Both the position numbers and the translations under genes were made by a program. From assembly GCA_039024555.1 (NCBI GenBank), contig JBCCQQ010000029.1, forward strand, positions 8,132 through 72,131: a DNA stretch of 64,000 nt. Direction: 5' to 3'. This DNA comes from Cyanobacteria bacterium P01_D01_bin.156 (lineage in GTDB: Bacteria; Cyanobacteriota; Cyanobacteriia; Phormidesmidales; Phormidesmidaceae). Position 1 is the first letter of the stretch, and each line of letters begins with the position of its first letter. Positions 24,491 through 64,000 of this stretch are shown in pieces. The notes under the pieces are model-generated. The model saw only the letters and a program-made list of their open reading frames with translations. It was not told where the DNA came from and ran no database searches.

Positions 24491-25780
24491 TTAGGGCCGT
24501 TCATGGTTGTTATCTTCCAGATCAGCAACGGCCGCTTCTGGACTTTTACCGTCTTCTAGAATGCTGATAATTCCTGGCAGATAAAGATCTAAGGTATGCA
24601 CATTGAGATAAACTAAATTCTTAACTAGAGCATGGGTGAGGCGGTCTCCTTCTGCATCCAAACTGGTTTTATAACGAATTTCTCCAGTTTTATAGTTAAG
24701 TTCAAAATTACCAATAATCAGACCACTGTTGGCCCGCATTAAAAATTCAGCAATTGGACCATAGTTTTCGGCTGGGATTATTAGGGGACAAATCGAGTAA
24801 AAGACGACCTGCTCAGCGTCATTGTCACACTGGGCTAAACAGGTCCAACGGCCAGCATCTCCTTGAAAGGCCAGTTGGAGAATCTGGGAGTCGGGTAGCT
24901 GCACATAGGCCCAGTCGTCCATATCAAAAAACTGTTTGACGACGTCGGAAATGATGGGTGCCTTTGAGGAGTTGGCCGCAACGTCTGCGATCGCAGTTTC
25001 CCAGTCCACTTGTTCTAAGGCTGCCACCAGCTGATCGGATAGGTGCGACAGGCTGCTTTGTAATTGAGGTAATTCAGCGTCGATTTCTGTTTGAACAGCG
25101 GTTTTGGCTTTGTTTAATAAGGTGCTCAACTGTTCTAGGGCGTCACTGCCAGAGTTGATCAGGGGTTCGGTAATCTGGGGCGTTGTATACGCCCATAGAG
25201 TAGTATAGCCAACAGTCTCTTCCCCCTGCTGCTGTCGTACCGAGCGACAGTACCAATTTTCCATGTAGCACCAGGGTGAAATGCTGTCTGTGGCATCAGG
25301 ATTGGCAGCTGTCGTTGCCGATACTAAAGCCTGCAGTAGCTGTTCGGTTGGTTCGGTAGTTGCCGGTGAGTCTAAAACTGCTAGGAGCTGGGTTAATACC
25401 GGCTTAACAGGGGCTTCTGAATTAGCGGATTCTAGGACCGCTGATGACAACAGTTGGCTATCTAATCCAAGTTCTAAACTAATGGCGGTATCCGCTTGCA
25501 ACGTTAGCGACTGCAGTGGCCCCCGAACTTCTGGTCGCAGGTGAAACAGTCCCTGTTCTAGAATTTGTTCGTACTGTTCTAGGGAAACTGTAACTGTCAG
25601 GTAACAGTCGGTAATTTTTTGCTGACTGTCTTTCACACTGGTCAGCTGCACTGCCGTGACCATGAATTTGCTGACTGGCTCTGCTGTTGTACTCCACAGA
25701 CGTAATGGACAGTTGAGAGGCAGCGTGTGAACGCTATCAGCAGTTAGGGGGGACTGGGTCACGGTGGCAGTTGGCATCAT
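24491..25780 (-). CDS. Protein with C-terminal YbjN (T3SS-chaperone-like) domain
   Basis: VVFYSICP......IAEFLMRANSGLIIGNFELNYKTGEIRYKTS is YbjN-like; lies directly downstream of the 2375-aa DUF4157 gene. Confidence 0.8.
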   Translation of the reverse strand: MMPTATVTQSPLTADSVHTLPLNCPLRLWSTTAEPVSKFMVTAVQLTSVKDSQQKITDCYLTVTVSLEQYEQILEQGLFHLRPEVRGPLQSLTLQADTAISLELGLDSQLLSSAVLESANSEAPVKPVLTQLLAVLDSPATTEPTEQLLQALVSATTAANPDATDSISPWCYMENWYCRSVRQQQGEETVGYTTLWAYTTPQITEPLINSGSDALEQLSTLLNKAKTAVQTEIDAELPQLQSSLSHLSDQLVAALEQVDWETAIADVAANSSKAPIISDVVKQFFDMDDWAYVQLPDSQILQLAFQGDAGRWTCLAQCDNDAEQVVFYSICPLIIPAENYGPIAEFLMRANSGLIIGNFELNYKTGEIRYKTSLDAEGDRLTHALVKNLVYLNVHTLDLYLPGIISILEDGKSPEAAVADLEDNNHERP

Positions 25781-25794
25781 ACATATCCCATAGA

Positions 25795-28700
25795 TTATTG
25801 CTTTTGGGCTTGAGGTGTGGCTCGAATAATGACATCAATGGTTTCTGGATTCAGACGACGCACTTTCGAACTAACTTTCATTTTGCGGTCTTGAGCTTGG
25901 TCTATTTTGTCAACAGACTTAGCCGTTTTGTCAGTAGACGAAGGTGTGACTTTATCCGGTGTAGGCGTATCCGCAACAGGTTCTTTGGTGGGAGTGGCCG
26001 TATCGGTTTTGTGATCAGTGGTTGGATCAGCTGCCTTGACTGAAGTCTTCGGTGGGGGAGCATCGGCTGCTGTTATTGGCTTCGCTGTGTCGGTCTGGGT
26101 AGATTTGCTAGCCGTGGGGTTGTTGACGTTATCGGTAACCTTGGCGGCTCCTTTACGGGCTGCACCCCCTAAACGCTTTAGAAAACTAGCGATTTTGCTG
26201 GCGCGTATAAACTTGGCCCGACCGTTAATCTTGACAATGTATTGAAATGAGTCTCCTACCTCTGCATAGGTTACGAGCTTTACAAGCTGCATTTCAAACA
26301 TGACCCGTACTTTGTCCAGCTTGCGAGCAACGGTATCCGGATCGGGATCTTGGTTGACGATATCTTGAATGACTTTAACAATATCGTTTACCAAGCTAGG
26401 GGGGAGAGCCTCTTCTGGAGTTTCTTCCTCCTCAGACATTTGGGTGTCTTCTTCTGGAGGGGCTTCCTCTTCTTCTTCTTGTTTTTCTTCGATTCTGACG
26501 TTCACGGTGAGCTTAGAATCTTTATCGGTAATCCGCGATCGCACCGTCACATCTTCTTCTTTTTTGCCACCTCCCGATAGCAGTCCACTGGCCGCTGCTC
26601 CAGCCGCTGCCCCAGCTGCTACTGCAGTCAAATTTCCTGCTTCAGGCGTGCTTTCTCCGGTGTTTTCTGCATCCCGCTGGATCCACAAACCCAGCCCCGA
26701 TCTATCAGCGACTCGCTGTACCGGTGGAGGTGTTGCCTCTGGACGGGAGACACGCTGCCCCACGGCTGGCTGGTCGCCCGATTGCTGAATCACATGGGTG
26801 AGTTCGTGGGCCAGCAAGTGTTGACCACTATCAGTCTCTGGAGCATAGGTGCCCCGTCGGAAAAAGATATCCCGCCCGGTGGTAAATGCCTTGGCCTGTA
26901 TGGCACGGCTAAGGCGATCTCCTTCGTTCCCAGTGTGTATACGTACAGGGCTGAAGTCCGTGGCAAACGCATCTTCTAACGGTGCCCTAACGGCTGAGGA
27001 AAGGGTCTGGCCCCGTCCCTCAGACCGCTGAATATCGGTTTCGAGGGTGGGTTGGATAATGTGTTGTGGCTGGGCAGGAGCGGCGGCAACTTTTTGGGCC
27101 GATTTATTGTTCTTTTTATCGACTTCTCCGCTAATTTTGTACCGACTGCCGTCGCGCTTAGTCTTGGTAACGGTGAGGGCCTTCAGCTTGTACTGTTTTT
27201 TCAGTTGTTTGGCATATTTTTTAATCTTTTTGAAGTCGGCATTGCGTTTGATTCTACCTTTGAGTTTATCGCGAACCTTTTTGAGAACCTTATCCTTTTC
27301 GACCAGTTTTGCTTCTACCGTAAAGTCACCTTTCTTTTTAGTGGCCTTAAGTTTTTTCTTTTTGACGGCAACGTCATTATTCTCATCTTTCCAATCACCC
27401 TGATTGGATTTACGCTGGGCCACACCCACCTGATGTCCTGAACGCTGTTGCTGTACATGGGTGAGCTCGTGGGCCAGTAAATGTTTTCCCTGGGGAGTAT
27501 CGGGCTGGTAATGCCCCTGCCGGAAAAAGATATCTTGATTGACGGTGAATGCCTGGGCATTCATGGCTCGGCTCAAGCGGTCACCTTCCGCATCGTGGTG
27601 GATGCGTACACCCGAGAAATCAGCCGTGCCGAAGGCATCTTCCATGGAGGACTGCACCGGGTCAGATAGCTGATTTCCCTGCCCTGATAAGCGTTGGACA
27701 TGCTCTTCTACGGAAGCTGAATCATGGGGGACTGCGGTTACCCCAGGCAAAGGTTTTCTGCGGGCCTTGGTTCCTTTACCCTTTTTATCCGGTTTGGCAG
27801 TGGCTTTGCCAATAACCTGGTATTTCTTGTTGCCTTTTTTCTTTAATGTTAAAGAATCCAGATCGCGTTTTTTCTTGATACTCGACAACTTGCCTTTGAC
27901 CTTATCTGGATCCCGTTTGTCATCTGCCAGGTTGCGGACATCTGTAACAGCAGCCTTTAACTGCTTCTTTAGATTACTTTTAGGGTTGTTTTTTTTATCC
28001 TTGTCTTTATCCTTTTTCTTCTTAGGATCCTTGTCATCATCGTCATCGTCTTTTTTCTTCTTTTTAGGATCCTGCTTATCATCGTCCTTTTTCTTTTTAG
28101 GATCCTTGTCATCATCGTCATCCTTCTTTTTCTTAGGATCTTGGCTATCATCATCGTCATCATCATTATTTTTCTTCTTATTGGAGTCTTGGTTGCTCTT
28201 GTTAGAATCTTTTTCTGCTGTGGACTTATCTTGGGAGTTAGTTTTACCTTTATTGGTATCGTTTGCCTGGCCAGTTGGTTTGGACGATTGCTGGTTAGTG
28301 GAATCCTTATTCGCAGGCTGACTTGAGTTCTTAGATGAAGCAGGAGTACTGCTATTTTTTTGCTCCGGTGGCTTGTCATTGGCCTTATTTTGCTCGGATG
28401 ACTTGTCATCATCATCGTCTTTATTCTTCTTCTTATTGCGTTTTTTCCCAGATTTACTAGCTGCCTTATCGGCTAATCCCGATACTCCACCTTCAATGGC
28501 CCCCACTGGATCAAGCAGCATACCCAGTTTCTCAAAGATTCCGCCTAATCCTTTATCAACAGGGGTGCGTAATTTCTCAACAACGTTACCAATTTTATTT
28601 GGAATGCCTCCCAGCCCCAGGAGGCTAGCAAAGAAACCAAGGGCGAGGGGGATGATTTTTGCCAGGGCTAATTCAACCGCCTGGGCTACCGGTTGCCAAG

Positions 28701-31700
28701 TTTTGGAAACAACAGCTGAGAAAACCGCCCCAATGGATTTTAGAACCTCGAAAATCATGTCTTTGTTGTTGATCAAAAAGATCACCACATCAACAATCAT
28801 TTTGACGATTTTGGCAATGCCGGACGCTGGGTTCATTAATCCAATAATGTATTGAATGCCTGCGATCGCAATCTCTGGAATAACAACCTGGGTCACAATC
28901 ATGGTGATAAACTCACCCTTGAGGCTAGAAAATACATCCTTGATGAAATCCCAGATAGCCATAAAGCCTTTTTTCGGAAAATCACCAATGGCCTGGAAAA
29001 AGCTCATCACATACTGGGGGACACCTAGGTCTTTCAAAGTCTCCGTTAAATTAGATAAAGCACTCAAACCCTGATCGAGCAGCATCCGTAGCAGCTCAAC
29101 CGCCCAATCTGGCATCAGACTGGCGGCTAATTCAAAAATGGCATCCTTGGTTAGCCCCAAAATTTGGAGCAAAATATCGATAACCCCCTGTAAATCGAAC
29201 TTATCTGGAAACTTAATTTGAATGCCGCTACCCAGTAACCATTCAAAAAAGCCATTAATAACGTGCTTGAGAATGTTGTTGCCAAATTTTTTGAAGCCTT
29301 CACCAATGCCCGTGAAGAGCGTGTTCATTACTCCACCAGGATCATCCACAAAGGCATCTAAAAACGCATTAACATGGGAACCAATGCCAGGAATCAGGGA
29401 AATGGGCGGCTTCAAAATGTTCAAAACCTGCCGCAAAATCCATTTGCCAATTTCCGCTAGGGCGCTAGCAATTTTGCTCACCAAACTGGCATTGGCGGCC
29501 TTCAGTTCTTCAATGCGTTCATTAACTTCTTTTAGGGACGCTTCATACTTCGCCTTAAGATCGTCAACCAGGGAGTTTTGTTTATCTCGAATGGTCTGTT
29601 CTAGGCCGTCAAACTGTGCTTGGACCGTTGCTGCAGCATCTAGGCCAATGGAGCGGAGATCATCGGGTAGTGCTGCCACATATTCTTGTACCCGCTGGCG
29701 GCCACGATCCACTTCGGCTTTAGCATTGGTTAGCTCTTCTTCAACAATATCGGCAATGCGATGGACACCTTGGCGTTGAACATTTAGGTAATCCTCTTTG
29801 GCAATCTCATAGATATTGTTAACCTCATCGGGGAGGCCGGTAAATACCTTATTCACTAACCAAAGGGGAGTATTAAAAATTGGCTTCATATAGAAGCGAA
29901 TTTTTATATATGCCCAGCCAGCTTTGATTTCTATCCAGGGGATATACATCGGGTTGCGCACCCGATAGTATTGGTGTTTCCAATTCTCAAACAGCTGCTT
30001 TTGTCGGCGTTCAAAGACAGCCTTGGCTCGTCTATCGGTCGCTGCAAATTCATCATTGACCCGCTGATCCATCCGGGTCAGAGTGCCGTTGACATTGCCT
30101 TTAGTCTCATCGTAGATGGCTTGAATTTCTTGGGAAACGCGGGTCCGTTCACTTTCGTCTGTGGTTTGACTTTCTTGCTGGCTCTCCTGTACCCCTAGCA
30201 TTTCTTCCATGCGGGTGGCAAACATATCGTCGTTGCCTGCCGCAATAGTATCGGTCTGGGATTTTTCAGTATCTGCTTGTACAGAGGCTTCTGTTTGGCG
30301 AAATTTTTGCTGAGCGCCACCACCAAAATGTTGTTTGCCCTCCTCCAGGGCTCCGGTGGCATCTACACCGGCATCCTTCTCGTAGGACTTCAGACGATTC
30401 TCGTCTAACGGGACTGGGTTATCTTTTTGCGTGGGAGTTTCCGCCTCCACTATGGCCTGGCGCTGCAAAAACAGCCCTGGCAGCAGTTGAATATCTGGCA
30501 GCTGAGTAACCTGGGGCTGACGCTGGACCTCTTGGCCGTTCTCGGTTTCAGTCTGTACTGCCGGGTCAGTTGCTGTTTCAGGTTGAGGGGTAGCAGGGAC
30601 TTGTTTATTGTGCTTGGCGGGTTCAGTTGCCAGTTTGGGAGTGTTCATCGCCATGACGGTATCCGCCATGTGATCGGCTTCCTGCTCAAATTTATCCCCC
30701 GGTGCGCCAACCATAAGTTTGGCCTGTATGGGGGGGAGGTCCTTCTTATTCTTGGGAACTAAATTTTCAAGCGCCTGCTGAGTTTCTTGCAGGGGTTTTT
30801 CCACCTCTTCTTCGGTGCGAGGTTTTGGCGTGGCTGCGGTTGCATTAATGGACTCATCCGGTGGTTTTTCACCAGCTTCTTCGACGGCTTCAGGAGCTTG
30901 CGTAACCGGTTTAGGGTCTTCACTAGCTGGGTCCGGGGCGCGGGTGGCTGACTCTTTTAATTCACCTTCCGACTTGGACTTGGCTTTATTGACTTCGGCG
31001 GTAACTTTCTCCGAAGAGCCATCCATGCCCTTGCCTTCTTCAATATCCTTTTGGGATTTTGGTTTATTCGATTCTAGGACTGAGAGAAGGGCAGATACGA
31101 AGGATTCTCGATCAAATAGCTGAGGCTTTTTCCCGGCAGCTTCCTCCGATTGGGTCGCTTGGGCACGACGGCTTTGCTGCGCCGGGTCGTTGACGGCATC
31201 TTGCGCTTCGCGGGCTTTATCAACCGCTGGTTTATGGGTGGATTGTTGGGCTGCAACGTGCTCACTTTGATCGACAACGGCGGCAAAGGCCGGGTCTTCA
31301 TCCGGTGAGCTGGGGGCCTTGGTACCGCTAAAATCAGGGGCTTCGACTAGCCCTGGATCGGGTAGGTGCTCTGGAGTGCCAATGGGTGTAAGTTCAGGGC
31401 TGACCTCCCCGGATTCAGCTGAGCCATCGGCACCTTCTGGCTGTTCTTCGGCAGCGGCTTCTTCACCGTTATTTTCTGCTTCGGCCTCTTCTGATTTTTT
31501 TTGCTGGGTTTCTTTTTCCTCTAGGGCCTTTTGCTCTGCCTGACCAACATCGCTTTGTTGTTTTTGAGTCTCCTTTTCACCAGTGTTTTCACCCTCATCC
31601 TGAGCTTTCTTAGCTTCATTCTCACTTTTGTTCTTTAAATCCTCGGCGGCCTCTTCAGCTTTGTCTTCATCGCTGGCATTGCCTAATTTGCTTTTGGCCT

Positions 31701-32922
31701 CATTGGCCATGTTTCGACCGGCATCACCCCCTTTATCCGCTGCTGAGGTATCGGCTTCACCACTTTGTTTACTATTGATCTCCTGATTAATCCCTTTGAT
31801 GCCCTCATCCACGTCTTTTTTGACGTCATCCTTTTTATCCCGTTGCAGTACCCCTTGAACCCCATGGGAAATGGAGGGAGCACGGTCGCTCGTTCGCTGC
31901 AGAGTATCTGTTTCAGGCCCCTCCTGGGTGTGTTTCACAACCTGGTCTGCCATGCGATCGGCTTCTTGTTCATAGCGATCGCCTACAGCCCCGACCATTA
32001 AATCAGGCTGGATTGTGACTGAAACTTCTTCTAGATTGCCCACCGGTCGGGTTGCTACCTGGGAAATCTTCTGGCGCTGAACCTTAGGGGCAACGCTGGC
32101 GGCAACTGGCTGAGCAGAGGTTGCTAAAGGGGATTTGTTTATCTTTTCGGTCTTTTGGGCTAACCGTTTAGGATTTACGGTGGATGGGCCAGTTTGTTGA
32201 ATGGTGTGGGTGAGTTCGTGGGCTAGTAACCGTTTGCCACCAGTGGATTCTGGATTATATTTTCCAGAATTGAAGTAAATATCATTTCCGTGGGTAAATG
32301 CCTGAGCTTTCAGATTTTGATTCATCTGTACCGCTTCGGCATTGGTGTGGACACGTACCCCACCAAAATCATTGCCAAAGCGCGATTCCATGAAGTCACG
32401 CGTATTATTTGAGAGGGGTTGTCCTCCGCCCTTACTGCTTTGTAAGCGGCTTTCAATAGTAGACCCCGCTTCAAAGGAACCGTCCTCTGATTTGGTTTGT
32501 AATGGTGGGGCTGTTAATGAATTAGGCTCTGCCTTGAGGGTAACGGCACCGTCTTCCCATTTCTCGTCGGCTTTGGAAACGTTATCTGCCAGGGGGCCAG
32601 TTTCTAGAGGTTTGAGACTGACGGCACCATCTTCCCAGCGTTCTTTGACACCGTCTACTGTCTGTCGCTGAATGCGTCGTTGAATCGGTTTAGCCGGTCT
32701 ATACTCGGCAATTGCCACCTGTTCAAAGTGGTGGCCCTGGGTATCCGCCTGTTGTATTGGGTTATTGGGTGGTTCACCCGCCATTTGAATCTGGCCACCT
32801 TCATAGTCCAGACTTTGCTCATCGGATTCTGGCTGAGTGTCCTGGCTGTCAAACAGAGATTGTCCGCCAGCGGGAGCCGGAGTCGGAGTCGCGGAAACCT
32901 GAGTTTTTGCCTTTGTTGTCAT
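25795..32922 (-). CDS. 2375-aa eCIS-associated protein with three DUF4157 domains and a hydrophobic helical core
   Basis: Three copies of F..DF..VR.H....A.AFT...I.F..G.Y.P.......LLAHELTH.[IVQ]QQ; two EQEAD.MAD motifs; hydrophobic helical middle region; K/D-rich linker. Confidence 0.88.
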   Translation of the reverse strand: MTTKAKTQVSATPTPAPAGGQSLFDSQDTQPESDEQSLDYEGGQIQMAGEPPNNPIQQADTQGHHFEQVAIAEYRPAKPIQRRIQRQTVDGVKERWEDGAVSLKPLETGPLADNVSKADEKWEDGAVTLKAEPNSLTAPPLQTKSEDGSFEAGSTIESRLQSSKGGGQPLSNNTRDFMESRFGNDFGGVRVHTNAEAVQMNQNLKAQAFTHGNDIYFNSGKYNPESTGGKRLLAHELTHTIQQTGPSTVNPKRLAQKTEKINKSPLATSAQPVAASVAPKVQRQKISQVATRPVGNLEEVSVTIQPDLMVGAVGDRYEQEADRMADQVVKHTQEGPETDTLQRTSDRAPSISHGVQGVLQRDKKDDVKKDVDEGIKGINQEINSKQSGEADTSAADKGGDAGRNMANEAKSKLGNASDEDKAEEAAEDLKNKSENEAKKAQDEGENTGEKETQKQQSDVGQAEQKALEEKETQQKKSEEAEAENNGEEAAAEEQPEGADGSAESGEVSPELTPIGTPEHLPDPGLVEAPDFSGTKAPSSPDEDPAFAAVVDQSEHVAAQQSTHKPAVDKAREAQDAVNDPAQQSRRAQATQSEEAAGKKPQLFDRESFVSALLSVLESNKPKSQKDIEEGKGMDGSSEKVTAEVNKAKSKSEGELKESATRAPDPASEDPKPVTQAPEAVEEAGEKPPDESINATAATPKPRTEEEVEKPLQETQQALENLVPKNKKDLPPIQAKLMVGAPGDKFEQEADHMADTVMAMNTPKLATEPAKHNKQVPATPQPETATDPAVQTETENGQEVQRQPQVTQLPDIQLLPGLFLQRQAIVEAETPTQKDNPVPLDENRLKSYEKDAGVDATGALEEGKQHFGGGAQQKFRQTEASVQADTEKSQTDTIAAGNDDMFATRMEEMLGVQESQQESQTTDESERTRVSQEIQAIYDETKGNVNGTLTRMDQRVNDEFAATDRRAKAVFERRQKQLFENWKHQYYRVRNPMYIPWIEIKAGWAYIKIRFYMKPIFNTPLWLVNKVFTGLPDEVNNIYEIAKEDYLNVQRQGVHRIADIVEEELTNAKAEVDRGRQRVQEYVAALPDDLRSIGLDAAATVQAQFDGLEQTIRDKQNSLVDDLKAKYEASLKEVNERIEELKAANASLVSKIASALAEIGKWILRQVLNILKPPISLIPGIGSHVNAFLDAFVDDPGGVMNTLFTGIGEGFKKFGNNILKHVINGFFEWLLGSGIQIKFPDKFDLQGVIDILLQILGLTKDAIFELAASLMPDWAVELLRMLLDQGLSALSNLTETLKDLGVPQYVMSFFQAIGDFPKKGFMAIWDFIKDVFSSLKGEFITMIVTQVVIPEIAIAGIQYIIGLMNPASGIAKIVKMIVDVVIFLINNKDMIFEVLKSIGAVFSAVVSKTWQPVAQAVELALAKIIPLALGFFASLLGLGGIPNKIGNVVEKLRTPVDKGLGGIFEKLGMLLDPVGAIEGGVSGLADKAASKSGKKRNKKKNKDDDDDKSSEQNKANDKPPEQKNSSTPASSKNSSQPANKDSTNQQSSKPTGQANDTNKGKTNSQDKSTAEKDSNKSNQDSNKKKNNDDDDDDSQDPKKKKDDDDDKDPKKKKDDDKQDPKKKKKDDDDDDKDPKKKKDKDKDKKNNPKSNLKKQLKAAVTDVRNLADDKRDPDKVKGKLSSIKKKRDLDSLTLKKKGNKKYQVIGKATAKPDKKGKGTKARRKPLPGVTAVPHDSASVEEHVQRLSGQGNQLSDPVQSSMEDAFGTADFSGVRIHHDAEGDRLSRAMNAQAFTVNQDIFFRQGHYQPDTPQGKHLLAHELTHVQQQRSGHQVGVAQRKSNQGDWKDENNDVAVKKKKLKATKKKGDFTVEAKLVEKDKVLKKVRDKLKGRIKRNADFKKIKKYAKQLKKQYKLKALTVTKTKRDGSRYKISGEVDKKNNKSAQKVAAAPAQPQHIIQPTLETDIQRSEGRGQTLSSAVRAPLEDAFATDFSPVRIHTGNEGDRLSRAIQAKAFTTGRDIFFRRGTYAPETDSGQHLLAHELTHVIQQSGDQPAVGQRVSRPEATPPPVQRVADRSGLGLWIQRDAENTGESTPEAGNLTAVAAGAAAGAAASGLLSGGGKKEEDVTVRSRITDKDSKLTVNVRIEEKQEEEEEAPPEEDTQMSEEEETPEEALPPSLVNDIVKVIQDIVNQDPDPDTVARKLDKVRVMFEMQLVKLVTYAEVGDSFQYIVKINGRAKFIRASKIASFLKRLGGAARKGAAKVTDNVNNPTASKSTQTDTAKPITAADAPPPKTSVKAADPTTDHKTDTATPTKEPVADTPTPDKVTPSSTDKTAKSVDKIDQAQDRKMKVSSKVRRLNPETIDVIIRATPQAQKQ
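28011..28170 (-). repeat. Coding tandem repeat, ~4 x DPKKKK(K)DDDD
   Basis: Repeated ttaggatc(c/t)..tcatcatcgtc units inside the 2375-aa gene. Confidence 0.8.
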
Positions 32923-32965: not shown

Positions 32966-34276
32966 TTATCCCCCCACGGTCATGAGCGTTAGGGCTTTGT
33001 TAAGCCAGTGAGACTTTTGCGATCGCTGGTGTGGGAAAATAGTATCCACGTCAATTTCGCCATAGTCCAGCTGTTGAATCAGGGCCTTACAGAGCTGAAT
33101 GGTGTTATCTTCTGGCTGATGTAACAGTTCAGGATGAGAATTGTCGAATACAGGATCTAAATAGCGGCCATCGACCCAGGTGGGCGAAACCCCCAAATAG
33201 GCTTTGGCGTTGAGCGGTTGCCCCGGTTGGTAGGTAAACTTGAGATAGGCTAAACGCTTAACCAACAGACATTCGCGATAGGGGGCCAGCTGATCTGACC
33301 AGTGTTGCAACAGAGCTGGGAAGGGTGCCAGGTTATCCTGAGACCGTATATAGCCGGGATAGGCCAGTAGTGCAGCTGCGCGATCGCAGGAACAAATTCC
33401 CATCGTCACCAGGCGATTCAGAACCTGTTGCCAATCGTTTTTTTGGCCAAAGTAACATTCCACCGCAATGTGCGGTGATAGCTCGTGGTGAATTTCTAGC
33501 TGTAGGGATAGGGATTGGGCACCGTGACACACCCCACTTAGCAAAGGTGTCAGTAGATCCAGGTCCCCAGACCAGTTAAGCTGCTGGAGCATTGAACGTA
33601 TCCGTTGCAGCGTCATATCCTTGATGTAAAGCCTGAGACCGGGTACATCATCTGACTGGCTAACCCGACCTGACAGTGCACCCACTTGAAACAGCGGAGT
33701 GGTGGGTGAGAGTGTGGAAAGACACTGCTGTAGTGTGTGCTGAGTGTCTGTTGGCAAGGTACGGCCCAGCAATGCGGGTAAAGCCTGTTGGCCAATCCAG
33801 TCTAGACTGTTGCCACGGCTCTCCTTGAGTCCGAAAAAGCTACTAGGTACCGGCAGCTCTGCATTATTTTGATTGATGTCAAATTCTAACCAGATATCTT
33901 CAATCTCGGATTGGAGAGCCTGTTGGGGAGATTGCCAAAGACGGGCCAACTGCTGAATATGGTGCCAGGGCGTTTGAGTCCACAGGTCTGTAAACCCTGG
34001 AGGCATTAACTCCGGTTCTCGATGTAGTTGACTAAGGACCGGTAGCGTTAAGGGTTGTCCCGCTAAGAGGGACTGTCCCCAGGCTCCACTTACCCGTAAG
34101 AAAAAGTCCGCCTCCGTCGGCTGGGATAGGGGACATTCAAACCCTACCGTTGTTCCTAAGGTAAGCGGTAACTGTTCTGCGACTGTACCAATTGCGGCCA
34201 GGGCTGACGGTGTTATCAGCTGGTCAGAAATTGTTGGTGCGATCGCAATAATAATGTCATTTAGGGAAGATACCAT
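32966..34276 (-). CDS. Hypothetical protein, possibly ABBA/aromatic-prenyltransferase-like fold
   Basis: Likely start is ATG 34276 (MVSSLND), just after the DUF6760-frame stop. Motifs FECPL, IWLEFD, PSSFFG, FQVGALSGR, LKFTYQPGQPLNAKAYLG. The fold call is tentative. Confidence 0.55.
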   Translation of the reverse strand: MVSSLNDIIIAIAPTISDQLITPSALAAIGTVAEQLPLTLGTTVGFECPLSQPTEADFFLRVSGAWGQSLLAGQPLTLPVLSQLHREPELMPPGFTDLWTQTPWHHIQQLARLWQSPQQALQSEIEDIWLEFDINQNNAELPVPSSFFGLKESRGNSLDWIGQQALPALLGRTLPTDTQHTLQQCLSTLSPTTPLFQVGALSGRVSQSDDVPGLRLYIKDMTLQRIRSMLQQLNWSGDLDLLTPLLSGVCHGAQSLSLQLEIHHELSPHIAVECYFGQKNDWQQVLNRLVTMGICSCDRAAALLAYPGYIRSQDNLAPFPALLQHWSDQLAPYRECLLVKRLAYLKFTYQPGQPLNAKAYLGVSPTWVDGRYLDPVFDNSHPELLHQPEDNTIQLCKALIQQLDYGEIDVDTIFPHQRSQKSHWLNKALTLMTVGG

Positions 34277-34278
34277 CC

Positions 34279-34434
34279 TTAGGGCTCCTGGGCTATTAGC
34301 TGGTAAACCTCTTGCACCCAACGATGGCGCTCTTGATGTTCCAGCGACAAAATTTCTTGACGTGACCAGTGAAAATGAAACGCAATTAAGGCTATCTCTT
34401 GGTACAGCTGTTCCAAGGGATAGCCAGGAGCTCC
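34279..34434 (-). CDS. DUF6760-like tail-chaperone extension; no start codon, probably made by -1 frameshift from the upstream gene
   Basis: The -1 frame reads GAPGYPLEQLYQEIALIAFHFHWSRQEILSLEHQERHRWVQEVYQLIAQEP*. Upstream in that frame is TAA TGA with no ATG/GTG in between. Confidence 0.8.
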   Translation of the reverse strand, partial: GAPGYPLEQLYQEIALIAFHFHWSRQEILSLEHQERHRWVQEVYQLIAQEP

Positions 34435-34778
34435 CCCATTAGGGAAAGCCGGTAGTCGGAAGGATTGATATCATTATAAAGCTCGATCAAGTAGTGTACA
34501 TCGGCCATAAAGAGATGACCCACATCATCGGCACTCAGCTGTGGATGTCCCTGGAGCTGTGTAACCCGTGATAAGCGTAACAAGATTCCATAGGCATCAC
34601 TGTCCATCATTTGTGACCCATGGTGGGCAGCCAGTTCATCGGCTCCAGTGGCCAATCGCATGTGGCCCTGGCGATACGCCTCTGTCTCAGTGGTGAATCC
34701 TTGGGGAAGTTCCAACGGTACTTGGGTAGAACCAGGTGGTTTACTGGCTGGTTCTAAGGAAGGCAGGGGAGACATCAT
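34392..34778 (-). CDS. Tail assembly chaperone-like protein, divergent paralog
   Basis: LELPQGF.......QGHMRLATGADEL...LLRLSRV...LFMADVHYLIELYNDIN; ends ...ATG GGG GAG at the candidate slip site. Confidence 0.75.
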   Translation of the reverse strand: MMSPLPSLEPASKPPGSTQVPLELPQGFTTETEAYRQGHMRLATGADELAAHHGSQMMDSDAYGILLRLSRVTQLQGHPQLSADDVGHLFMADVHYLIELYNDINPSDYRLSLMGELLAIPWNSCTKR

Positions 34779-35164
34779 GACGTCGCAGCAACAAGTTCTT
34801 GGGTAAGCGCATTTTCGATATCTGTTATGGACTCAGCAGAAATATCTGCCTCGGTAAGTATTGCCGGACTGTTGATCTGTCGATAAAGGGTTTGCAGGTA
34901 GCCCAAGTCCGAGGCAAACATATTTTCCAACACCTGGGGAGTCACTTCGGGTAAATCCCCTAGGGAGACAATCACCCGAGTCAGGATGATAATGGAGGCA
35001 TAGGCTGGGTTAGCTTGTACCCGAGGGTCCTGCAGGGGTAAAATCTCATCCATGGCCCGCGATCGCCTCATGATGCCCACTTGGTGCACCTGACCAAAGT
35101 CATCAACATAGCCAGTGGGTAAGCAAAACTCAAATTCTGTTTGCATCATTGTTTTCTTTTGCAT
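34775..35164 (-). CDS. CIS tail assembly chaperone-like protein
   Basis: QTEFEFCLPTGYVDD.G.VH..GIMRRS.AMDEI.PLQDPRVQANPAY...ILTRVI..LG......VLENMFASDLGYLQTLYRQIN; a small protein typical of eCIS loci. Confidence 0.85.
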   Translation of the reverse strand: MQKKTMMQTEFEFCLPTGYVDDFGQVHQVGIMRRSRAMDEILPLQDPRVQANPAYASIIILTRVIVSLGDLPEVTPQVLENMFASDLGYLQTLYRQINSPAILTEADISAESITDIENALTQELVAATS

Positions 35165-35167
35165 ATG

Positions 35168-35698
35168 TTAACTAATGGGGCTGACCCGCTTAAAGCCTTC
35201 GCAGGCCAGCTCTAAATCTTCAAAGGCTAGGTCTGTGCCCGACACCATACTGTCTGACAGGGTGTAACTGACCGGCCAGGCACCCTCAAACTGAAACCGG
35301 GCTCCGGCGGTGCCATCCTGACGATAAAGTGTGATCGAACCATCTTTGCAAGCCGCTGGCCATCCCCCATCCTGGGCCAGGTCAATCCAATTCCACAGGG
35401 TTTCTGAGGCCCCCATACCCCGGCGCAGATTAATATTGTCAATGCGCTCGACGCCAGGAATTTTACTGCGATGGATAAGTCCCACCGAACTACCCTGACG
35501 GCCCCAACCTTCAGGGAACGATTCTGTGAACTCAATCACATCTTGGTAGTACTTGAGCCCCTTACATTCCATAAACAATCCGTCCACATCATCTACGCTG
35601 TCGTTTAAGTGGAGTTCCACATAAAAGCGAGATGCCGTGAGATATTCATAAAATGTTGTGGTGTCCTCAGGGGATGGTGTGGTTACCACATTCACCAT
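35168..35698 (-). CDS. Phage-tail tube protein (gp19-like)
   Basis: RFYVEL...FMECKGL...NINLRRGM....LWNW...DGSITLY.QDG...ARFQFEGAWPVSY.......LAFEDLELACEG. Confidence 0.88.
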   Translation of the reverse strand: MVNVVTTPSPEDTTTFYEYLTASRFYVELHLNDSVDDVDGLFMECKGLKYYQDVIEFTESFPEGWGRQGSSVGLIHRSKIPGVERIDNINLRRGMGASETLWNWIDLAQDGGWPAACKDGSITLYRQDGTAGARFQFEGAWPVSYTLSDSMVSGTDLAFEDLELACEGFKRVSPIS

Positions 35699-35830: not shown

Positions 35831-36355
35831 CTAGGCGGATGTACCCGCTGTCGGTACTCGAATTAGGCCTGCATGGGCAATCTCAATGGTTTCCTTAAAT
35901 AGATCGGTACTCTCGGTTTGCACCTGGGTGGTGGTGTACTTTGCTGGAATCGCATCACGAATTGACCAGCGTGCACCTTCTGTACCATCTTGTTTGTAGA
36001 AGACTAAACCACCCGAAAAGCGATTTTTCATTTCTGGGCGGCCACCACCAATGGCAGACTTGGGATGACAATCCAGGTACCAGTTCAACAAAATATCATT
36101 TTCGCGGGCAGTCACAAACTCTAGCGTTAGGTTCTCGTAGGTGACGCCGCTGGGGGTAATTTGGGTTTGGGTGACAATTCCTTTACCAACACCGATAGGT
36201 TGTCCTTCGGCAGCGGGATCAATTGAAATGGATACACCGCTACATTTGGAAATTAAAAGGCGGGTGGTGGCATCATATTCAAAGTAAAATCGGCTGACGG
36301 TGAGATATTCCATTCGTGCCGTACTGTAGGCAAAGGCGCTGGCTGCAGCAACCAT
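35831..36355 (-). CDS. Phage-tail tube protein (gp19-like, divergent)
   Basis: RFYFEYD...YENLTL......LLNWY...SGGLVFYKQDG.EGARWSIRDAIPAKY......ETIEIAH.G. Confidence 0.82.
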   Translation of the reverse strand: MVAAASAFAYSTARMEYLTVSRFYFEYDATTRLLISKCSGVSISIDPAAEGQPIGVGKGIVTQTQITPSGVTYENLTLEFVTARENDILLNWYLDCHPKSAIGGGRPEMKNRFSGGLVFYKQDGTEGARWSIRDAIPAKYTTTQVQTESTDLFKETIEIAHAGLIRVPTAGTSA

Positions 36356-36435: not shown

Positions 36436-36987
36436 TTAAGAATAGCTCACCGCCAGGGAAGCGCGACGATCGGAAGCGCTGGTATTAGAACTCGATAGCG
36501 AAACAACCTTATCAATATGTTCGGCCACGAGTTCGTAAGTCTCCACCGCCAAGTCTTGTCCAGTCACATCAGGATCGGAAATAGAGTACTTTTTAACCCA
36601 GGCCCGGAATAAGTTCCAACGCAGTACCTCGTCACCTTGGGGATCGTAGACAACAATGGAGCCCGTGCGACGGTTTTTAGACCAGTTGCCACGACCGCCA
36701 TCACTGGGGGGTAAACACTCTTGGAACCAGTTATAAAGTTGGAAGCTGGCACTACGAGAGTCGTCGCACATATAGACTTCCACCGTCATTGACGGACTAG
36801 AATCGTAGCCGCCAGATGTGGTCTGTCGAGATGTTTTACCACCCTTGGTTGAGGCAATTGCTTTAGCATTACCCGTGACCTTAGCCTCATAGGAGAGCTG
36901 GGCCATGCTCTTAATTTCTGCTTCTGTGATGCCGTCGAATTCAATGTAGTAACTCGACGCCGTGGTGGTAAAAATTGGTTCAGCCAT
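36436..36987 (-). CDS. Phage-tail tube protein (gp19-like), first gene after the sheath
   Basis: YYIEFDG...LYNWF......RRTGSIVVYDPQGDEVLRWNLFRAWVKKY.........LAVETYELVAE. Confidence 0.85.
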   Translation of the reverse strand: MAEPIFTTTASSYYIEFDGITEAEIKSMAQLSYEAKVTGNAKAIASTKGGKTSRQTTSGGYDSSPSMTVEVYMCDDSRSASFQLYNWFQECLPPSDGGRGNWSKNRRTGSIVVYDPQGDEVLRWNLFRAWVKKYSISDPDVTGQDLAVETYELVAEHIDKVVSLSSSNTSASDRRASLAVSYS

Positions 36988-37137: not shown

Positions 37138-38868
37138 CTAACTCTCGTCCTGACCATTCCACTGGCTGATGCGGAAGATCACAAATTCCGCAGGACGTAC
37201 CGGGCATACTCCCACTTCGATATACAATCGACCTAACAGCATGGTGTCAGAGGTATTTAGCTCACCGTCGCACTTAACGTAAAAAGCCTGTTCAGGGCTG
37301 CTACCCATAAGTGCGCCTTGTCGCCATAATTCTGTCAAGAAATTACTAACAACTCGCTTGACGCGCTGCCACAGATCTTCGTCGTTGGGCTCAAAAACAA
37401 CCCACTGGGTACCTGTTTCGATGGACTTTTCAATGTAGCTCATTAGACGACGTACATTGATGTAGCGCCATTCAGTAATATCGGGTTCCACCAAAGTGCG
37501 AGCACCCCAAATACGAATGCCACGACTGGGGAACGGACGTAAACAATTAATACCAATGGGGTTAAGTTGTTCCTGTTCCCGGAAGTTGCAATTGTAGGCT
37601 AGACCAGTGACACCGCGTGGTACCTCGTTGGCTGGCGCCTTGTGTACACCACGGGTTTCATCGGTGCGCGCCCACACACCCATAATATGACCACAGGGAG
37701 GAACCGTAATCGGGCGGCCACCATTGCGAGGGTTGGGGACTTCAATCCACGGATAGTAGAGGGCTGCAAACTGCGAACGACGATTAAACTCTTCTGATAA
37801 CCAGTGACTGACATCTTCAGGTTTTATGCGATCTGGGGGAGGATCAAACACCACCATACGATTAGGCGGATTTGGAATGTCTCCTGCCGCGGCGGCTTCG
37901 CACATGCTAATCATCAAATCCATTACTGAGTGGACCTGATCAATATCCATTAACCCGGCTTCGTATACCCGCATAACATCGGGACAGGCAATAATGGTGA
38001 CTTCGTCAATTTCAAATAGCCCCCGTAGGCCCGTACGATCATTGCCTGCCCCTTCTAAATGGCTAGGTAGTTCATCTTGGGATGATACGGGTAATGGTGG
38101 ACTAATTTCGTAAAGTCCATTAGCTGGGCGGCGAGCCAAAATGCTACCGGTACTGTTGAGGGAGGTGGCAACAACATAGTTAGAGGTGCGTAGAGCATCC
38201 TCCACGTAGTCGGCAACGGCAGTATTTACCTGGGGATTCATGGTCAAGTGTTCAAACCGCTCTAGGGTTTCGTCACCTTGACGTACTGCAACAGTAAAGA
38301 ACTCACCTGTATTGATATTGACTGTGGTGGCAGTAGCGGTGTTACCGTTACTGCTTTCTCCATCGCCATTGTTGTCGACAGCGCTGGGTGGTTTGGGAGT
38401 ACCGTTTAGGATTTGAATTTTCAGCGCACGGCTACCACCATTTTGAGATCCATTACTGAGTTGAGGCATGCCGCTAGACTGCAGAGAGAATCTCAGAGTA
38501 GGGCGATCTCGACGGCTGAGTAAATCAGTGCCACTTTCAGTGACTTCGGGGGCAGGTGTTCCTGGGAGACGTGTACCTATGCTGGTTACCCAACAACGAC
38601 CACCGCCATTGAGAAACCAACCATAGACCGAAAATGGTAAATAGGCATCAAAATCAGTAAATCCATCGGAGTTAGGTTTGCCAAAATACTCCAAATACTG
38701 ATTCCAGGTTGTTACCATCATGGGTCGAAAGAGTTCAGCCCCACCCCTAACATCCTCTGTAAATCCTACAAAGCCAGCGATCGCAGTGGGTAATCCTTCG
38801 ATTGGACGACTGCCGCGATCAACTTCCTCGACGTAAACCCCTGGCGCAAAATAGTCCAATCTTGCCAT
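37138..38868 (-). CDS. Contractile tail sheath protein (Afp2-4-like)
   Basis: APGVYVEEVD.GSRPIEG..TAIAGFVG; AALYYPW; PPCGHIMGVWARTD.TRGVHKAPANE; LNP.GINCLR; IWGARTL; WRYINVRR; WVVFEPND; PVRPAEFVIFRI. ATG 38868 follows GAGG. Confidence 0.95.
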   Translation of the reverse strand: MARLDYFAPGVYVEEVDRGSRPIEGLPTAIAGFVGFTEDVRGGAELFRPMMVTTWNQYLEYFGKPNSDGFTDFDAYLPFSVYGWFLNGGGRCWVTSIGTRLPGTPAPEVTESGTDLLSRRDRPTLRFSLQSSGMPQLSNGSQNGGSRALKIQILNGTPKPPSAVDNNGDGESSNGNTATATTVNINTGEFFTVAVRQGDETLERFEHLTMNPQVNTAVADYVEDALRTSNYVVATSLNSTGSILARRPANGLYEISPPLPVSSQDELPSHLEGAGNDRTGLRGLFEIDEVTIIACPDVMRVYEAGLMDIDQVHSVMDLMISMCEAAAAGDIPNPPNRMVVFDPPPDRIKPEDVSHWLSEEFNRRSQFAALYYPWIEVPNPRNGGRPITVPPCGHIMGVWARTDETRGVHKAPANEVPRGVTGLAYNCNFREQEQLNPIGINCLRPFPSRGIRIWGARTLVEPDITEWRYINVRRLMSYIEKSIETGTQWVVFEPNDEDLWQRVKRVVSNFLTELWRQGALMGSSPEQAFYVKCDGELNTSDTMLLGRLYIEVGVCPVRPAEFVIFRISQWNGQDES

Positions 38869-38992
38869 AGGTCTGACCTCTAACCTCCACAATTAGTGCG
38901 AATCGAGTATTCATTTCAGTAAAAAAGGTTTCTGTTCTAAAAGAACAATCTTTTGTTGCACATTAGCGGAGACCTCTTCATCTCGGTTAGTA

Positions 38993-41531: not shown

Positions 41532-43504
41532 CTCTCACGGCTTCTCCCCTTACCTGGCAACAGGCCAATCAGCAGTACTTACAGGCCCAGTTAACTAAAA
41601 TAAAATTACAGCTGAGTCAAAAGGCTGAACAGCCCTGTGATCTGCCAGACGATCCGATTAGGGATATCGAACAGGCCGCCCAACAGCTAGAGTCTCCCTC
41701 CTCACTAGAACAGCTTTGCGACACCTTTGAGCTGTCCACCTTTGAGCGAGATATTTTAGTCCTGTGTGCGGGCATGGAGCTGGATGCCAGCATTGCCCCG
41801 CTCTGTGCCCTGGCCCAGGGAGACCCGCAAAAGCCTTTTCCCACATTGAGTTTAGCGCTGAGTTTATTTACAGATGCCCATTGGAGTGCGCTAACGCCCC
41901 GTGCGCCGCTGCGGCGCTGGCGTTTGATTGAGCTGGGTAAAGGTCTGGGGTTGATGCAGCGATCGCTACAGGTGAATGAGCGAATTTTGCATTACCTGGC
42001 GGGGATTCATCATTTGGATGAGAGACTGACTGGCCTGATAGAGCCGCTTGGCACCCTAAGTAATCTGGTGGCTTCTCACCAAGCCTTGGCCAATCAGCTA
42101 GCCGATACCTGGGCGCAGGCAGCGGAGCAGCCGACATTGCCTATTTTGCAGCTGGCGGGGGATAGTCCTACCAGCCAGCAAGCGATCGCAGGTCGGGTGT
42201 GTCGAGATCTCAATCTGCAGCTGCATAGTTTGGCAGGGCAAGATGTCCCGGCTAATGCAAAGGATTTGGTGCAGTTTCTTCAGCTATGGGAGCGTGAGGC
42301 GATCCTGAGCAGCAGTGCGTTGTTGCTGGACTGTACAGAAACCAGTCTAGAAAAACATCAGGAACCGATCACTCGGCTGCTAGAACAGATTCGCAGTCCG
42401 CTGATGGTGACCACTCGCGATCGCGTTCACTGTCAGAAACGCACCATCCTCAATATCGATGTCAATAAGCCCAGCCATGGCGAACAGCAAAACCTCTGGG
42501 AGCAGCATCTGCAGGCATTTGATCCTAAGTTCCTTCAAGTTGTTCCGGCGTTAGTCACCCAGTTTAACCTTAGCCATCCTGAAATTGCGGCGGTATGTAC
42601 CCGTGTGTTTAGTCAGGTGGATCGGGCGACGCTTACCCCTGCGATTCTGCAGGCTGAACTGTGGGATGGCTGTCGGTTGCAGGCACGACCGCAAATGGAC
42701 GATTTGGCCCAGCGCATTACGGTAAAAGCCACCTGGGACGATCTGGTGCTGCCGGAGACTCAGCTAGAAACCTTGCGTACGGTGACAGCCCAGGTGCGAC
42801 AGCGGGTAAAGGTATATGAAGACTGGGGATTTTCGAGTAAAAATATGCGCGGTCTGGGCATTAGTGCATTGTTTGCTGGACCTAGCGGTACAGGTAAAAC
42901 TACAGCTGCAGAGATTTTGGCCAATGAGCTAAACCTAGATCTTTATCGCATTGACTTGAGTGCTGTCGTCAGTAAATACATTGGAGAGACGGAGAAAAAT
43001 TTACGCCGAGTATTTGATGCGGCGGAAGGTGGCGGTGCGGTGTTGTTGTTTGATGAAGCCGATGCGCTATTTGGTAAGCGCAGTGATGTCAAAGACAGTC
43101 ACGATCGCCATGCAAATATTGAGGTGAGTTATTTGCTGCAGCGGATGGAAGCCTATCAGGGGTTAGCGATTCTCACCACTAACTTGAAAGGGGCCTTAGA
43201 CAGTGCCTTTATGCGGCGGATTCGGTTTGTGTTGCAGTTTACATTTCCGGATGTGAGTCAGCGGATGGAAATCTGGCGGAGGATTTTTCCAAGGGAGACT
43301 CCGACTAAAGACTTAAGTGTGGAACGTCTCGCTCGTTTACAGGTGGCAGGGGGAAATATTAGAAATATTGCTCTTAATGCGGCGTTTTTGGCTGCAGATG
43401 CGGGGGAACCGGTGATGATGAAGCATTTGCTGGTTTCTGCACGAGGGGAATATAGCAAGTTGGAAAAAACACTGACGGATCGAGAGATTAAGGGGTGGGT
43501 TTAA
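41528..43504 (+). CDS. CIS AAA+ ATPase (Afp15/Pvc15-like)
   Basis: GPSGTGKT, DLSAVVSKYIGETEKNL, LLFDEADALFGKRS.VKDSHDRHAN, LLQRME; degenerate first AAA module. Confidence 0.93.
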   Translation: MTLTASPLTWQQANQQYLQAQLTKIKLQLSQKAEQPCDLPDDPIRDIEQAAQQLESPSSLEQLCDTFELSTFERDILVLCAGMELDASIAPLCALAQGDPQKPFPTLSLALSLFTDAHWSALTPRAPLRRWRLIELGKGLGLMQRSLQVNERILHYLAGIHHLDERLTGLIEPLGTLSNLVASHQALANQLADTWAQAAEQPTLPILQLAGDSPTSQQAIAGRVCRDLNLQLHSLAGQDVPANAKDLVQFLQLWEREAILSSSALLLDCTETSLEKHQEPITRLLEQIRSPLMVTTRDRVHCQKRTILNIDVNKPSHGEQQNLWEQHLQAFDPKFLQVVPALVTQFNLSHPEIAAVCTRVFSQVDRATLTPAILQAELWDGCRLQARPQMDDLAQRITVKATWDDLVLPETQLETLRTVTAQVRQRVKVYEDWGFSSKNMRGLGISALFAGPSGTGKTTAAEILANELNLDLYRIDLSAVVSKYIGETEKNLRRVFDAAEGGGAVLLFDEADALFGKRSDVKDSHDRHANIEVSYLLQRMEAYQGLAILTTNLKGALDSAFMRRIRFVLQFTFPDVSQRMEIWRRIFPRETPTKDLSVERLARLQVAGGNIRNIALNAAFLAADAGEPVMMKHLLVSARGEYSKLEKTLTDREIKGWV

Positions 43505-43506
43505 CG

Positions 43507-46500: not shown

Positions 46501-47064
46501 GCCGCAAAAGTGCCTGAGCAGGCATTGTCAATAGCTCAAACAGTTGCTGTCCAAGGACCTAGTGCTGCTGTGGATAGCACGACTGCTATAGCTAGTGCTG
46601 CGTATCTTAGCGGAGTAAATGACAACACTGATACCCGTAAACAACAAGAAGCAGGGAAACTGTCACCCACTGCTGGTCATCAAACTGGAGCTGTATCCAA
46701 CAATGCATTGTCTGCCGCTTCGACGATGGAACGAAAGGTTTCTAAAGGCTTAATTATGCAGCGACGTGACAAGGCAACTGAAAAGTTGGGGTACATCACT
46801 CAAAACTTTGGAGATGCAGACAGGAAAGTTGGAGACGTTGAAAAGAAATCAAACGAATTAAATACCGGACTGCAGCCACAAGCTTCACAGTCAAATGATA
46901 CAGCTGAGGTTACTGAAGAAGACCGTAGTTCTGCCTCTGGTACAGTTCAAAAAATTAAGGATACGCTTCAAGATGCTAAAGACGGATTTGCTGCTGGCAA
47001 ATCGTTTTTACAACAGGGACAAAAAGGTGTTGAGAAAGCTGTTACATCTAAATTAGAAGAATAA
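43507..47064 (+). CDS. DUF4157 cargo-like protein with AT-rich coiled-coil and hydrophobic-hairpin C-terminal region
   Basis: Likely start ATG 43507. DUF4157 (FGTDFSTVKIH...AKAFTTG..IFF...LIAHELTHVVQQ); later hydrophobic stretch IGLLATGLSFVPVPGIQIVTVTIATIASTVKLILSTIKAAISAVIGVI. Confidence 0.85.
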   Translation: MVRRRQRQTQQDLPPVAQLDRPSSSNSLFASDIDTSEWNSEENSETISPQNLLTHSQQQGFQFSHTPILSTAEKQAPSSPIQAKLAVGSANDAYEQEADDISEQVIGQIYESGDGHLPQNTINLHKKSPSPFKALQCYRSTPQPAKGQQPVSPEVETQVDHMRGKGQSLPRETQQTMEQAFGTDFSTVKIHTDNQAHRLNESVQAKAFTTGPDIFFRRGTYQPSHQEGQKLIAHELTHVVQQQRSPTGQTTILQRDPTNNSSDKTSAETDDKDDIKATSEGEASASSTADTGGEMNDFDLGQSPSVGISGLLARGRSSSRRPIGKKADSLKPTNTGSSNKQLIHSSTSPTTNTGKNSSFLGKRNPHIKFGVLDPDLEAEFNHSPTFDHVDDTSQYHRTSQPLKRVGNHSTERSLEQYLSEASLEIANIENEVLNIADKSSEEGKNSQENLSELKIKEEKIKEIFETLDKCRIGLRTKNVDASHDDFLGETQENNSESFEKLRLKYAEAKIIKGKIEDLITENKYESIRQNIDGETLLTDVEVGGAASTVTNAALGTLDTAKASTYQYSKQVYEDSKYVQNKANQIGGYAEYVEDAQTAYSKADELDKIPPNKVLSSDEQVKIQDLRLKKENIVKRITLKRTKKESIEAKLKDKSLLVEADDYADKLKKAQSIVEFKQEFVYYFYDQTKIIQEEFKDKEENPEKNKATAKANVMAAHAKSAADEIRGHRLEAKKIRNDLRKQGVYPDIPHAIAGAAKTEVRDFLVGVATLGLGTAKAQKDKRGYTEGTEYTSIFSQVKEAYQKVKALTNINPDEDGYLDKFAAGLEVINSCLIEPVKRVAKNIGLLATGLSFVPVPGIQIVTVTIATIASTVKLILSTIKAAISAVIGVIRGLQTVISAWWAQDPRTAMYRQAQLQDSGFTTLKDAAGVGGSELTGFMASISELNKIEPVTTQDIFSGNLEGEVTENINSKIEAKLPEENGASTSEAESATLQEQFKAKAAKVPEQALSIAQTVAVQGPSAAVDSTTAIASAAYLSGVNDNTDTRKQQEAGKLSPTAGHQTGAVSNNALSAASTMERKVSKGLIMQRRDKATEKLGYITQNFGDADRKVGDVEKKSNELNTGLQPQASQSNDTAEVTEEDRSSASGTVQKIKDTLQDAKDGFAAGKSFLQQGQKGVEKAVTSKLEE

Positions 47065-47220: not shown

Positions 47221-47398
47221 CTAGATGTCTATGAGCTTTTTTACAAGACCTGTTTAAGGGATAGTGTATGACGTGCCGTGAGCGAAGCTTCAAAAGCGGG
47301 CAACCTCCAGGGTGAGGTAAGCATTAAATATGCAGCAAGAAAAAGACATTCAGTTCTTAAAACCTCATTGCCCAGTAGGTAGCAGTAGGGACAGTTCA

Positions 47399-63862: not shown

Positions 63863-63869
63863 TACCAAC

Positions 63870-64000
63870 TTAAGCCGCAAAACCATTTGCGTATGAGGGA
63901 TTCATCTTTTGTGCTTTAGATGACTTCCGGGGCATCGGTAAATCACCAATATGCTCGAGCATCCATTCGAATACATCTGGAAAAGGGTGGTCAAAAAGCC
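63870..64000 (-). mobile_element. 3' end of a probable transposase-like ORF (DUF6399-like) entering from the right edge
   Basis: Minus frame LFDHPFPDVFEWMLEHIGDLPMPRKSSKAQKMNPSYANGFAA*; stop at 63870-63872, next to the point where IS630 similarity ends. Confidence 0.5.

Follow-up and report, generated by a model that had tools for sequence, protein, structure and literature searches.

Does a contractile injection system (CIS) in a cyanobacterial genome make its tail assembly chaperone in two forms from one gene, by a programmed change of reading frame? G/GT frameshifting and its heptamer are already known from phages—the part of a 2016 review available to us (PMC5009743) describes a conserved G-T frameshift in long-tailed phages, with gpG and gpGT of lambda. 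In the window (the whole stretch of 64,000 nucleotides analysed here), a reading made from the letters alone, below called the sequence-only reading, had proposed that a chaperone-like ORF is recoded by -1 into a DUF6760-like frame. We consider it very probable, on comparative sequence evidence, that the G gene (34778-34392) undergoes programmed -1 ribosomal frameshifting at G_GGG_GAG, with a predicted hairpin 5 nt 3' of the site, and yields G and GT. We favour frameshifting because the two frames overlap in the -1 relation, the G run keeps a fixed phase, the second frame lacks a conserved start, the hairpin covaries, in-frame fusions exist, and G has a chaperone-like fold.

The locus and its two reading frames

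The features on which the argument depends all lie on the minus strand:

34392..34778, minus: chaperone-like ORF G, 128 aa, second of two tandem chaperone paralogs (ORF call)
34775..35164, minus: first chaperone paralog, 129 aa, with neither T frame nor slippery site (aligns with the G family)
34431..34437, minus: predicted slippery heptamer G_GGG_GAG, at Gly115-Glu116 of G, its G5 run being 34437-34433
34426..34430, minus: 5-nt spacer CTCCT (sequence)
34390..34425, minus: predicted 3' stimulatory RNA hairpin (folding energy and covariation)
34279..34431, minus: -1 frame, putative T moiety, DUF6760, 50 aa after the shift (Pfam PF20546)
35168-35698, 35831-36355 and 36436-36987, minus: three tail-tube genes, upstream in the same operon (Pfam Phage_T4_gp19)
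37138..38892, minus: tail sheath gene (Pfam Phage_sheath_1 and 1C)
32966..34276, minus: 436-aa ORF, starting 2 nt past the T stop (ORF positions)
25795..32922, minus: 2375-aa protein with three eCIS_core (DUF4157) domains (Pfam PF13699, three stretches)

The window operon is that of a CIS. Its genes run in the order sheath, three tubes, 129-aa paralog, G, DUF6760 frame, 436-aa ORF and 2375-aa eCIS_core protein, and the window also carries VgrG-like, Pvc16_N, AAA ATPase and baseplate genes; an eCIS gene set of sheath, tubes, spike, baseplate, terminator, AAA ATPase and eCIS_core stands in one cluster (a Pfam scan covered 18 window ORFs, and a later Pfam/NCBIfam scan 11 window references). The closest database relatives of the locus are cyanobacterial, and sheath, tubes, VgrG-like spike, AAA ATPase, Pvc16_N and eCIS_core are held in common with lineage II eCIS as these are described in the available portions of PMC6899500, PMC10066040, PMC10020575 and PMC8894136. 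A 451-aa ORF that contains the 436-aa ORF drew no Pfam or NCBIfam match; an ORF resembling the latter also comes after T in another locus (L027). The 2375-aa triple eCIS_core protein is a candidate lumen cargo or chaperone client. Further large eCIS_core (DUF4157) proteins, also candidate cargo, lie at 43495-47064 and 47330-49807 (both plus strand), and YbjN-like proteins are found directly 3' of eCIS_core genes at 24491-25780 (minus) and 49826-50266 (plus); a chaperone role for them is only a guess. Within 63473-63886, the ORF at 63473-63838 resembles a transposase N-terminus by eye.

The upstream ORF has a tail-assembly-chaperone fold, in keeping with its earlier description as chaperone-like. 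The family phrog_508, 'tail assembly chaperone', is matched by 16 of 19 aligned G-family members (best E 6e-10) and not by the window's own divergent G copy; Phage_TAC_7 is matched by 3 of the 19, below the cut-off, and NCBIfam returned no match for G, T or the paralog. When the G structure model (pLDDT 79.6) was searched against 48,161 PDB chains, the HK97 tail assembly chaperone came first (Z 6.8, rmsd 4.0, 86 aligned), followed by YqbN (Z 6.7, rmsd 5.0, 93 aligned) and rbstp2171 (Z 5.3), with rank 5 down to Z 3.3—all Z values under 8, modest if taken alone. YqbN and rbstp2171 we take to be chaperones too. Among viral models, the G model matches T4-like 'baseplate hub assembly' proteins and gp90 of Bacillus phage BCD7, and, weakly, Mu FS-gp41 (Foldseek E 0.044). 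The source genome holds five chaperone-family copies, with a T frame on just two.

On the minus strand the 3' end of G reads ATG GGG GAG, then 12 codons, then TAG, as the sequence-only reading had it. Past TAA TGA the -1 frame is open; it reads through the G run as ...GGAPGYPLEQLYQEIALIAFHFHW..., and stops at 34279. ORF inspection also bears out that, between TAA TGA and the conserved core, this frame offers no start-type codon other than a TTG inside YPLE. The frame, called DUF6760-like in the sequence-only reading, matches Pfam DUF6760 (PF20546) with E 2e-13 and 50.6 bits, the cut-off being 27. Its model is a predicted three-helix domain (pLDDT 90.9), for which a fold search against viral models gave nothing at E <= 0.001. 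DUF6760 is best read as the T domain of a lambda-like G/GT pair.

A conserved, predicted slippery site and hairpin

Loci were collected by a Pfam search (own genome and samples of five phyla), a GTDB pattern and an IMG/VR pattern; the GTDB set is the best 80 of 581 confirmed loci, ranked by similarity to the window's T, and the IMG/VR set numbers 17. This gave 195 rows, or 190 after five repeats were dropped, and 148 once 90% identical junctions were removed. Related loci are not independent, and the locus counts are therefore descriptive and not p-values.

The sequence-only reading had pointed to a conserved G run and -1 overlap in aligned orthologs as a check, and both are found. In 187 of 190 loci, spread over bacteria, archaea and phages, the T frame is offset by -1 from the chaperone; the exceptions are L087 (another frame, with a disrupted chaperone) and L123 and L136 (chaperone undetected by profile). 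An in-phase G5 or a perfect X_XXY_YYZ heptamer falls in the overlap of 143 of the 148 de-duplicated loci, against 5.5 by chance, and GGGGG[A/G] begins exactly 15 nt 5' of a conserved Tyr in 125 of them and 18 nt 5' in 4. Together these counts support the proposed -1 recoding into a G/GT pair with DUF6760 as the probable T. The Pfam-drawn sets are the fairer measure, because similarity to the window's T decided which GTDB loci were taken; GGGGG[A/G] is present there in 25/26 loci of the window's own phylum, 13/13 of Chloroflexota, 28/30 of Myxococcota (a sample of 30 of 70 matches; phylum names are from titles of centre records), 10/13 of Actinomycetota and 6/11 of the Methanosarcina phylum.

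The constraint extends to silent positions: the codon preceding Gly carries G at its silent third position in 119/119 loci, where local codon use predicts 40.7, and Gly at the site is written GGG in 128/129 (24.4 expected). Where an in-phase G5 is missing (18 loci), another perfect heptamer is present in 13, with 0.55 expected: six viral loci have T_TTT_TTY, three archaeal ones G_GGA_AAY, three deltaproteobacterial or myxobacterial ones C_CCG_GGG, and one viral homolog (L121) G_GGA_AAG, a heptamer rated shift-prone in the consulted part of PMC5009743. L002 (G_GAA_AAG) and L152 (G_GGG_AAA) are one G.U short of a perfect heptamer. Across the homologs 51/148 have a perfect heptamer; the window's G_GGG_GAG fails the strict X_XXY_YYZ rule and needs one G.U in the A site. 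As a control, only 3 of 34 stand-alone chaperone paralogs have a G5 or heptamer, and the window's first paralog (34775-35164, minus) has neither in its last 12 codon pairs. The second CIS of the source genome (L002, C24:43875-47039, junction about 1470-1520, plus strand) has the same T frame and hairpin, with G_GAA_AAG in place of the G run.

Two further patterns narrow the point of shifting. In L016 and L021 a T-frame stop stands directly 5' of GGG GGA, and in 40 of 125 loci the G stop comes directly after the second site codon; the shift is therefore bracketed to seven bases. A Shine-Dalgarno-like GGAG or GAGG ends 6-14 nt 5' of the G run in 60/125 loci, against 2 in a control stretch. We set this possible 5' stimulator aside, since the window does not have it and a Val-Glu motif confounds it.

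Beyond what the sequence-only reading had described, the site is followed by a conserved 3' hairpin. In the window the predicted structure (34425-34390, minus) starts 5 nt behind the heptamer—the usual heptamer-to-structure spacer being 5-9 nt in the accessible text of PMC5009743—and consists of 7 bp, a C.A mismatch, 5 bp and an inner 2 bp. It folds at -19.8 kcal/mol (z -4.93), with 0 of 200 shuffles as good. In an ungapped alignment of 125 rows its 12 pairs are 86.1% paired, against 33-57% in slid registers; the six core pairs reach 91-98%, the outer pairs 62-71% at worst, and double changes in hairpin pairs number 91 over the 125 loci, against 41.3 in shuffles. A Val codon in the hairpin is GTA in 107/110 loci (17.9 expected), myxobacterial and Chloroflexota loci included. 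When Tyr is written TAT its partner becomes ATA (Ile), so that this pair is C-G in 106, U-A in 8, U-G in 1 and broken in none of 115 loci. On a G-protein tree (quick method, 113 proteins, six long-branch rows of unsure placement) the C-G to U-A swap has at least four separate origins among 7 U-A rows.

Measured against synonymous resampling, 113 of 124 loci have a fold z below -2 in this stretch, and only 11 of 124 in the next 48 nt. Single folds give the hairpin register in 114/125 loci, and a shifted stem in the same place in 9 actinomycete-type loci, where the stem keeps the same distance from the G run. In the actinomycete-type loci (L091, L130-L132, L138, L140, L161-L163 and similar) T begins YA and not YP, and the stem is shifted by five bases. 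With default settings on the full set of 125 rows, RNAalifold did not find the hairpin and returned weak base-pairing between the G run and CCCC; RIBOSUM scoring recovers all 12 pairs, and the default recovers the core once 11 actinomycete-type variant rows are removed. We discounted a structure in which the G run pairs with the CCCC of Tyr-Pro, because 102/125 single folds that include the run still adopt the hairpin register.

Start codons, fusions and other readings of the overlap

The T frame has no conserved start codon, which bears on the alternative that survives best: that T is a small protein in its own right, translated through termination-reinitiation or from a weak start of its own, with the G run serving as a Shine-Dalgarno-like element. 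We judge this improbable. RefSeq does annotate DUF6760 as a separate CDS, in the four examined records that name it; the annotated starts, however, are ATA, ATG, GTG, ATG and GTG in five records, and no more than 0-3 nt separate them from the purine run. In 25 of 125 G5 loci the G stop overlaps a start codon (NTGA), but there is none at that place in the other 100, and 95/125 have no ATG, GTG or TTG in the three codons before the conserved Tyr. Orthologs with their own ATG and ribosome-binding site and no G run, which the sequence-only reading had set against its own proposal, are not the pattern: 92/125 G5 loci lack an ATG anywhere in the stretch examined. Initiation at the window's TTG fares no better, since TTG occurs at that codon in 21/125 only and would cut off the conserved Tyr-Pro; the G stop in the window, moreover, lies 28 nt past the Tyr. 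Heptamers with no Shine-Dalgarno character (T_TTT_TTC, C_CCG_GGG) take the place of the run, a strong hairpin so close behind the site would hinder initiation, and in-frame fusions exist.

Three Actinomycetota loci (L133, L136 and L139) start T with ATG at or beside the chaperone stop; in L133 and L139 this is an ATGA overlap with no slippery site, and coupling therefore probably serves a minority. Two metagenome loci, L204:1506-1958 and L205:2501-2956 (plus strand), encode G and T in a single frame; a stand-alone chaperone gene lies alongside, the G run is missing and folding is weak (-5.4 and -7.0 kcal/mol). These genes make the G-T fusion a natural protein. Their relative L206:2501-2950 (plus) has the -1 arrangement with a T8 run, which may be a shift site or a read error. 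Among 17 long DUF6760 proteins, 12 match G as well and mostly look like read-error joins, the P0009 type alone having been traced to DNA. A minority of homologs thus probably uses an overlapping start (L133, L139) or an in-frame fusion (L204, L205), and a separate T probably holds for a minority of homologs and not for the window locus.

A still less probable alternative places the slip at transcription: RNA polymerase would add an extra G at the run, and some mRNAs would then encode GT in frame. The homopolymer is conserved, and runs reach 8-9 G in a few loci (L050, L055) and T8 in L206; yet the run holds one codon phase, the substitutes follow the tRNA re-pairing pattern X_XXY_YYZ, and the base preceding the run is G in only 1/125, so that longer runs are not favoured. 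The hairpin, 5 nt downstream, would also be untranscribed while the polymerase sits on the run. That a sequencing indel or gene decay broke a once in-frame G-T gene in this genome has next to no probability, although in-frame genes exist and homopolymers are error-prone: 187 of 190 loci, from different phyla and from bacteria and archaea alike, share the -1 arrangement and its offset, silent sites and hairpin are under constraint, and one public DNA contig across 33900-35300, which may be the window's own source, has no indel.

Proposed mechanism, known relatives and meaning

Under programmed -1 frameshifting, most ribosomes would finish the 128-aa G. A minority would stall at the hairpin while GGG occupies the P site; tRNA-Gly could then re-pair from GGG to GGG and tRNA-Glu from GAG to GGA with one G.U, or the P-site tRNA might slip alone. 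Shifted ribosomes would yield a 166-aa GT (116 + 50 residues), the last 50 being DUF6760. The junction may read M-G-G-A-P-G-Y-P, as in the sequence-only reading, if a single tRNA slips, and M-G-E-A-P-G-Y-P if both do. By analogy with lambda, where G binds the tape measure and T the tube protein while the mature particle contains neither (PMC5009743, in the portion seen), many G would coat a tape-measure-like client and a few GT would recruit tube protein through T, with the frameshift setting the G:GT ratio.

The locus resembles lambda in its chaperone-fold ORF after a tube gene, its start-less overlapping -1 ORF and its slippery site at the 3' end of G. Unlike lambda, it belongs to a CIS operon in cellular genomes, with a G_GGG_GRR site, a retained covarying 3' hairpin and, in the CIS loci examined, no typical tape-measure gene after it. 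The sequence-only reading had named both lambda and Mu as precedents: the former comparison (-1) stands, and the latter does not; the closest precedent is the GGGGGAA of actinobacteriophage chaperone genes. In the part of the PRFect paper available (PMC10274946), GGGGGAA is a known shift site of actinobacteriophage (SEA-PHAGES) tail assembly chaperone genes, and re-pairing of tRNA-Glu on GGA through G.U is proposed—the same heptamer and the same proposed re-pairing as at the CIS site, reported there for phages; the word 'contractile' does not occur in that text. Mu, which shifts by -2 (PMC5009743, same portion), has in gp41/FS-gp41, as P2 has in its gpE-type protein (Phage_TAC_7), only a weak resemblance to G, and a Mu-type -2 shift is ruled out by the -1 relation of the frames.

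Among 50,697 records, Bacillus phage BCD7 was the only phage match (two records). An unannotated T frame (L196:3480-3653, plus) lies there between gp90 and the tape measure gp89, in the order sheath, tube, tube, gp90, T frame, tape measure; as in the window, G_GGG_GAG is found, directly before the gp90 stop, and the two T sequences are 38% identical over 42 aa. BCD7 gp90 is T4 gp26/gp51-like, matching PF12322 and resembling the G model. BCD7 differs in being a phage, in the length of gp90 (257 aa) and in having no predicted hairpin (-2.4 kcal/mol). A tape measure stands behind the pair in BCD7 and in 4 of 6 viral loci scanned, with PhageMin_Tail immediately after the G/T pair in L113, L116, L117 and L119 and no Pfam match for the long ORFs of L121 and L123; in contrast, none was recognised behind T in the window or among 10 CIS downstream ORFs, three of which are eCIS_core. 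The typical tape measure (Afp14) is likewise missing from lineage II and Streptomyces systems, as stated in the available portions of Chen 2019 (PMC6899500) and Casu 2023 (PMC10066040). Tape-measure-related cargo linked to DUF4157 has already been described in the literature, which suggests a client for G/GT.

We found no literature report of a frameshift in a CIS chaperone gene, although Vladimirov, Gautam and Davidson 2022 (Virology 566:9) and the GeneTack tables (PMC3711429 supplements) may list such loci. It does not appear in the accessible parts of PMC3711429, PMC5009743, PMC10020575 (with its 6 supplements, by word search), PMC8894136, PMC10274946, PMC13222765, PMC4122934, PMC10066040, PMC8213781, PMC6899500, PMC8718954, PMC13277306 or bioRxiv 2026.05.27.728243; the word 'frameshift' is absent from the main texts on lineage II eCIS (PMC6899500, PMC10066040, PMC10020575, PMC8894136), and a literature search by the name 'DUF6760' returned no paper. 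These CIS have no recognised tape measure, and we therefore put forward a wider proposal, as a tentative one that may well not hold in full: that a hairpin-stimulated -1 G/GT cassette with DUF6760 as T, so far unreported, is kept in CIS operons from eight or more bacterial phyla as well as from methanogenic and halophilic archaea, where G/GT would thread a hidden tape-measure-like or DUF4157-linked cargo into the tube and set tube length.

For the family, the analysis proposes a function for DUF6760, that of a T domain, and annotations that treat DUF6760 as a gene of its own, with odd starts, are probably mistaken for many genomes. It would also add a conserved -1 frameshift cassette common to bacteria and archaea; few archaeal recoding cases are listed in the consulted part of the 2016 review (PMC5009743). 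When such operons are recoded or rebuilt, both site and hairpin would have to be preserved for GT to be made. Finally, a chaperone pair in lineage II operons would offer a handle, through what G binds, on length setting and cargo loading in systems without a typical tape measure.
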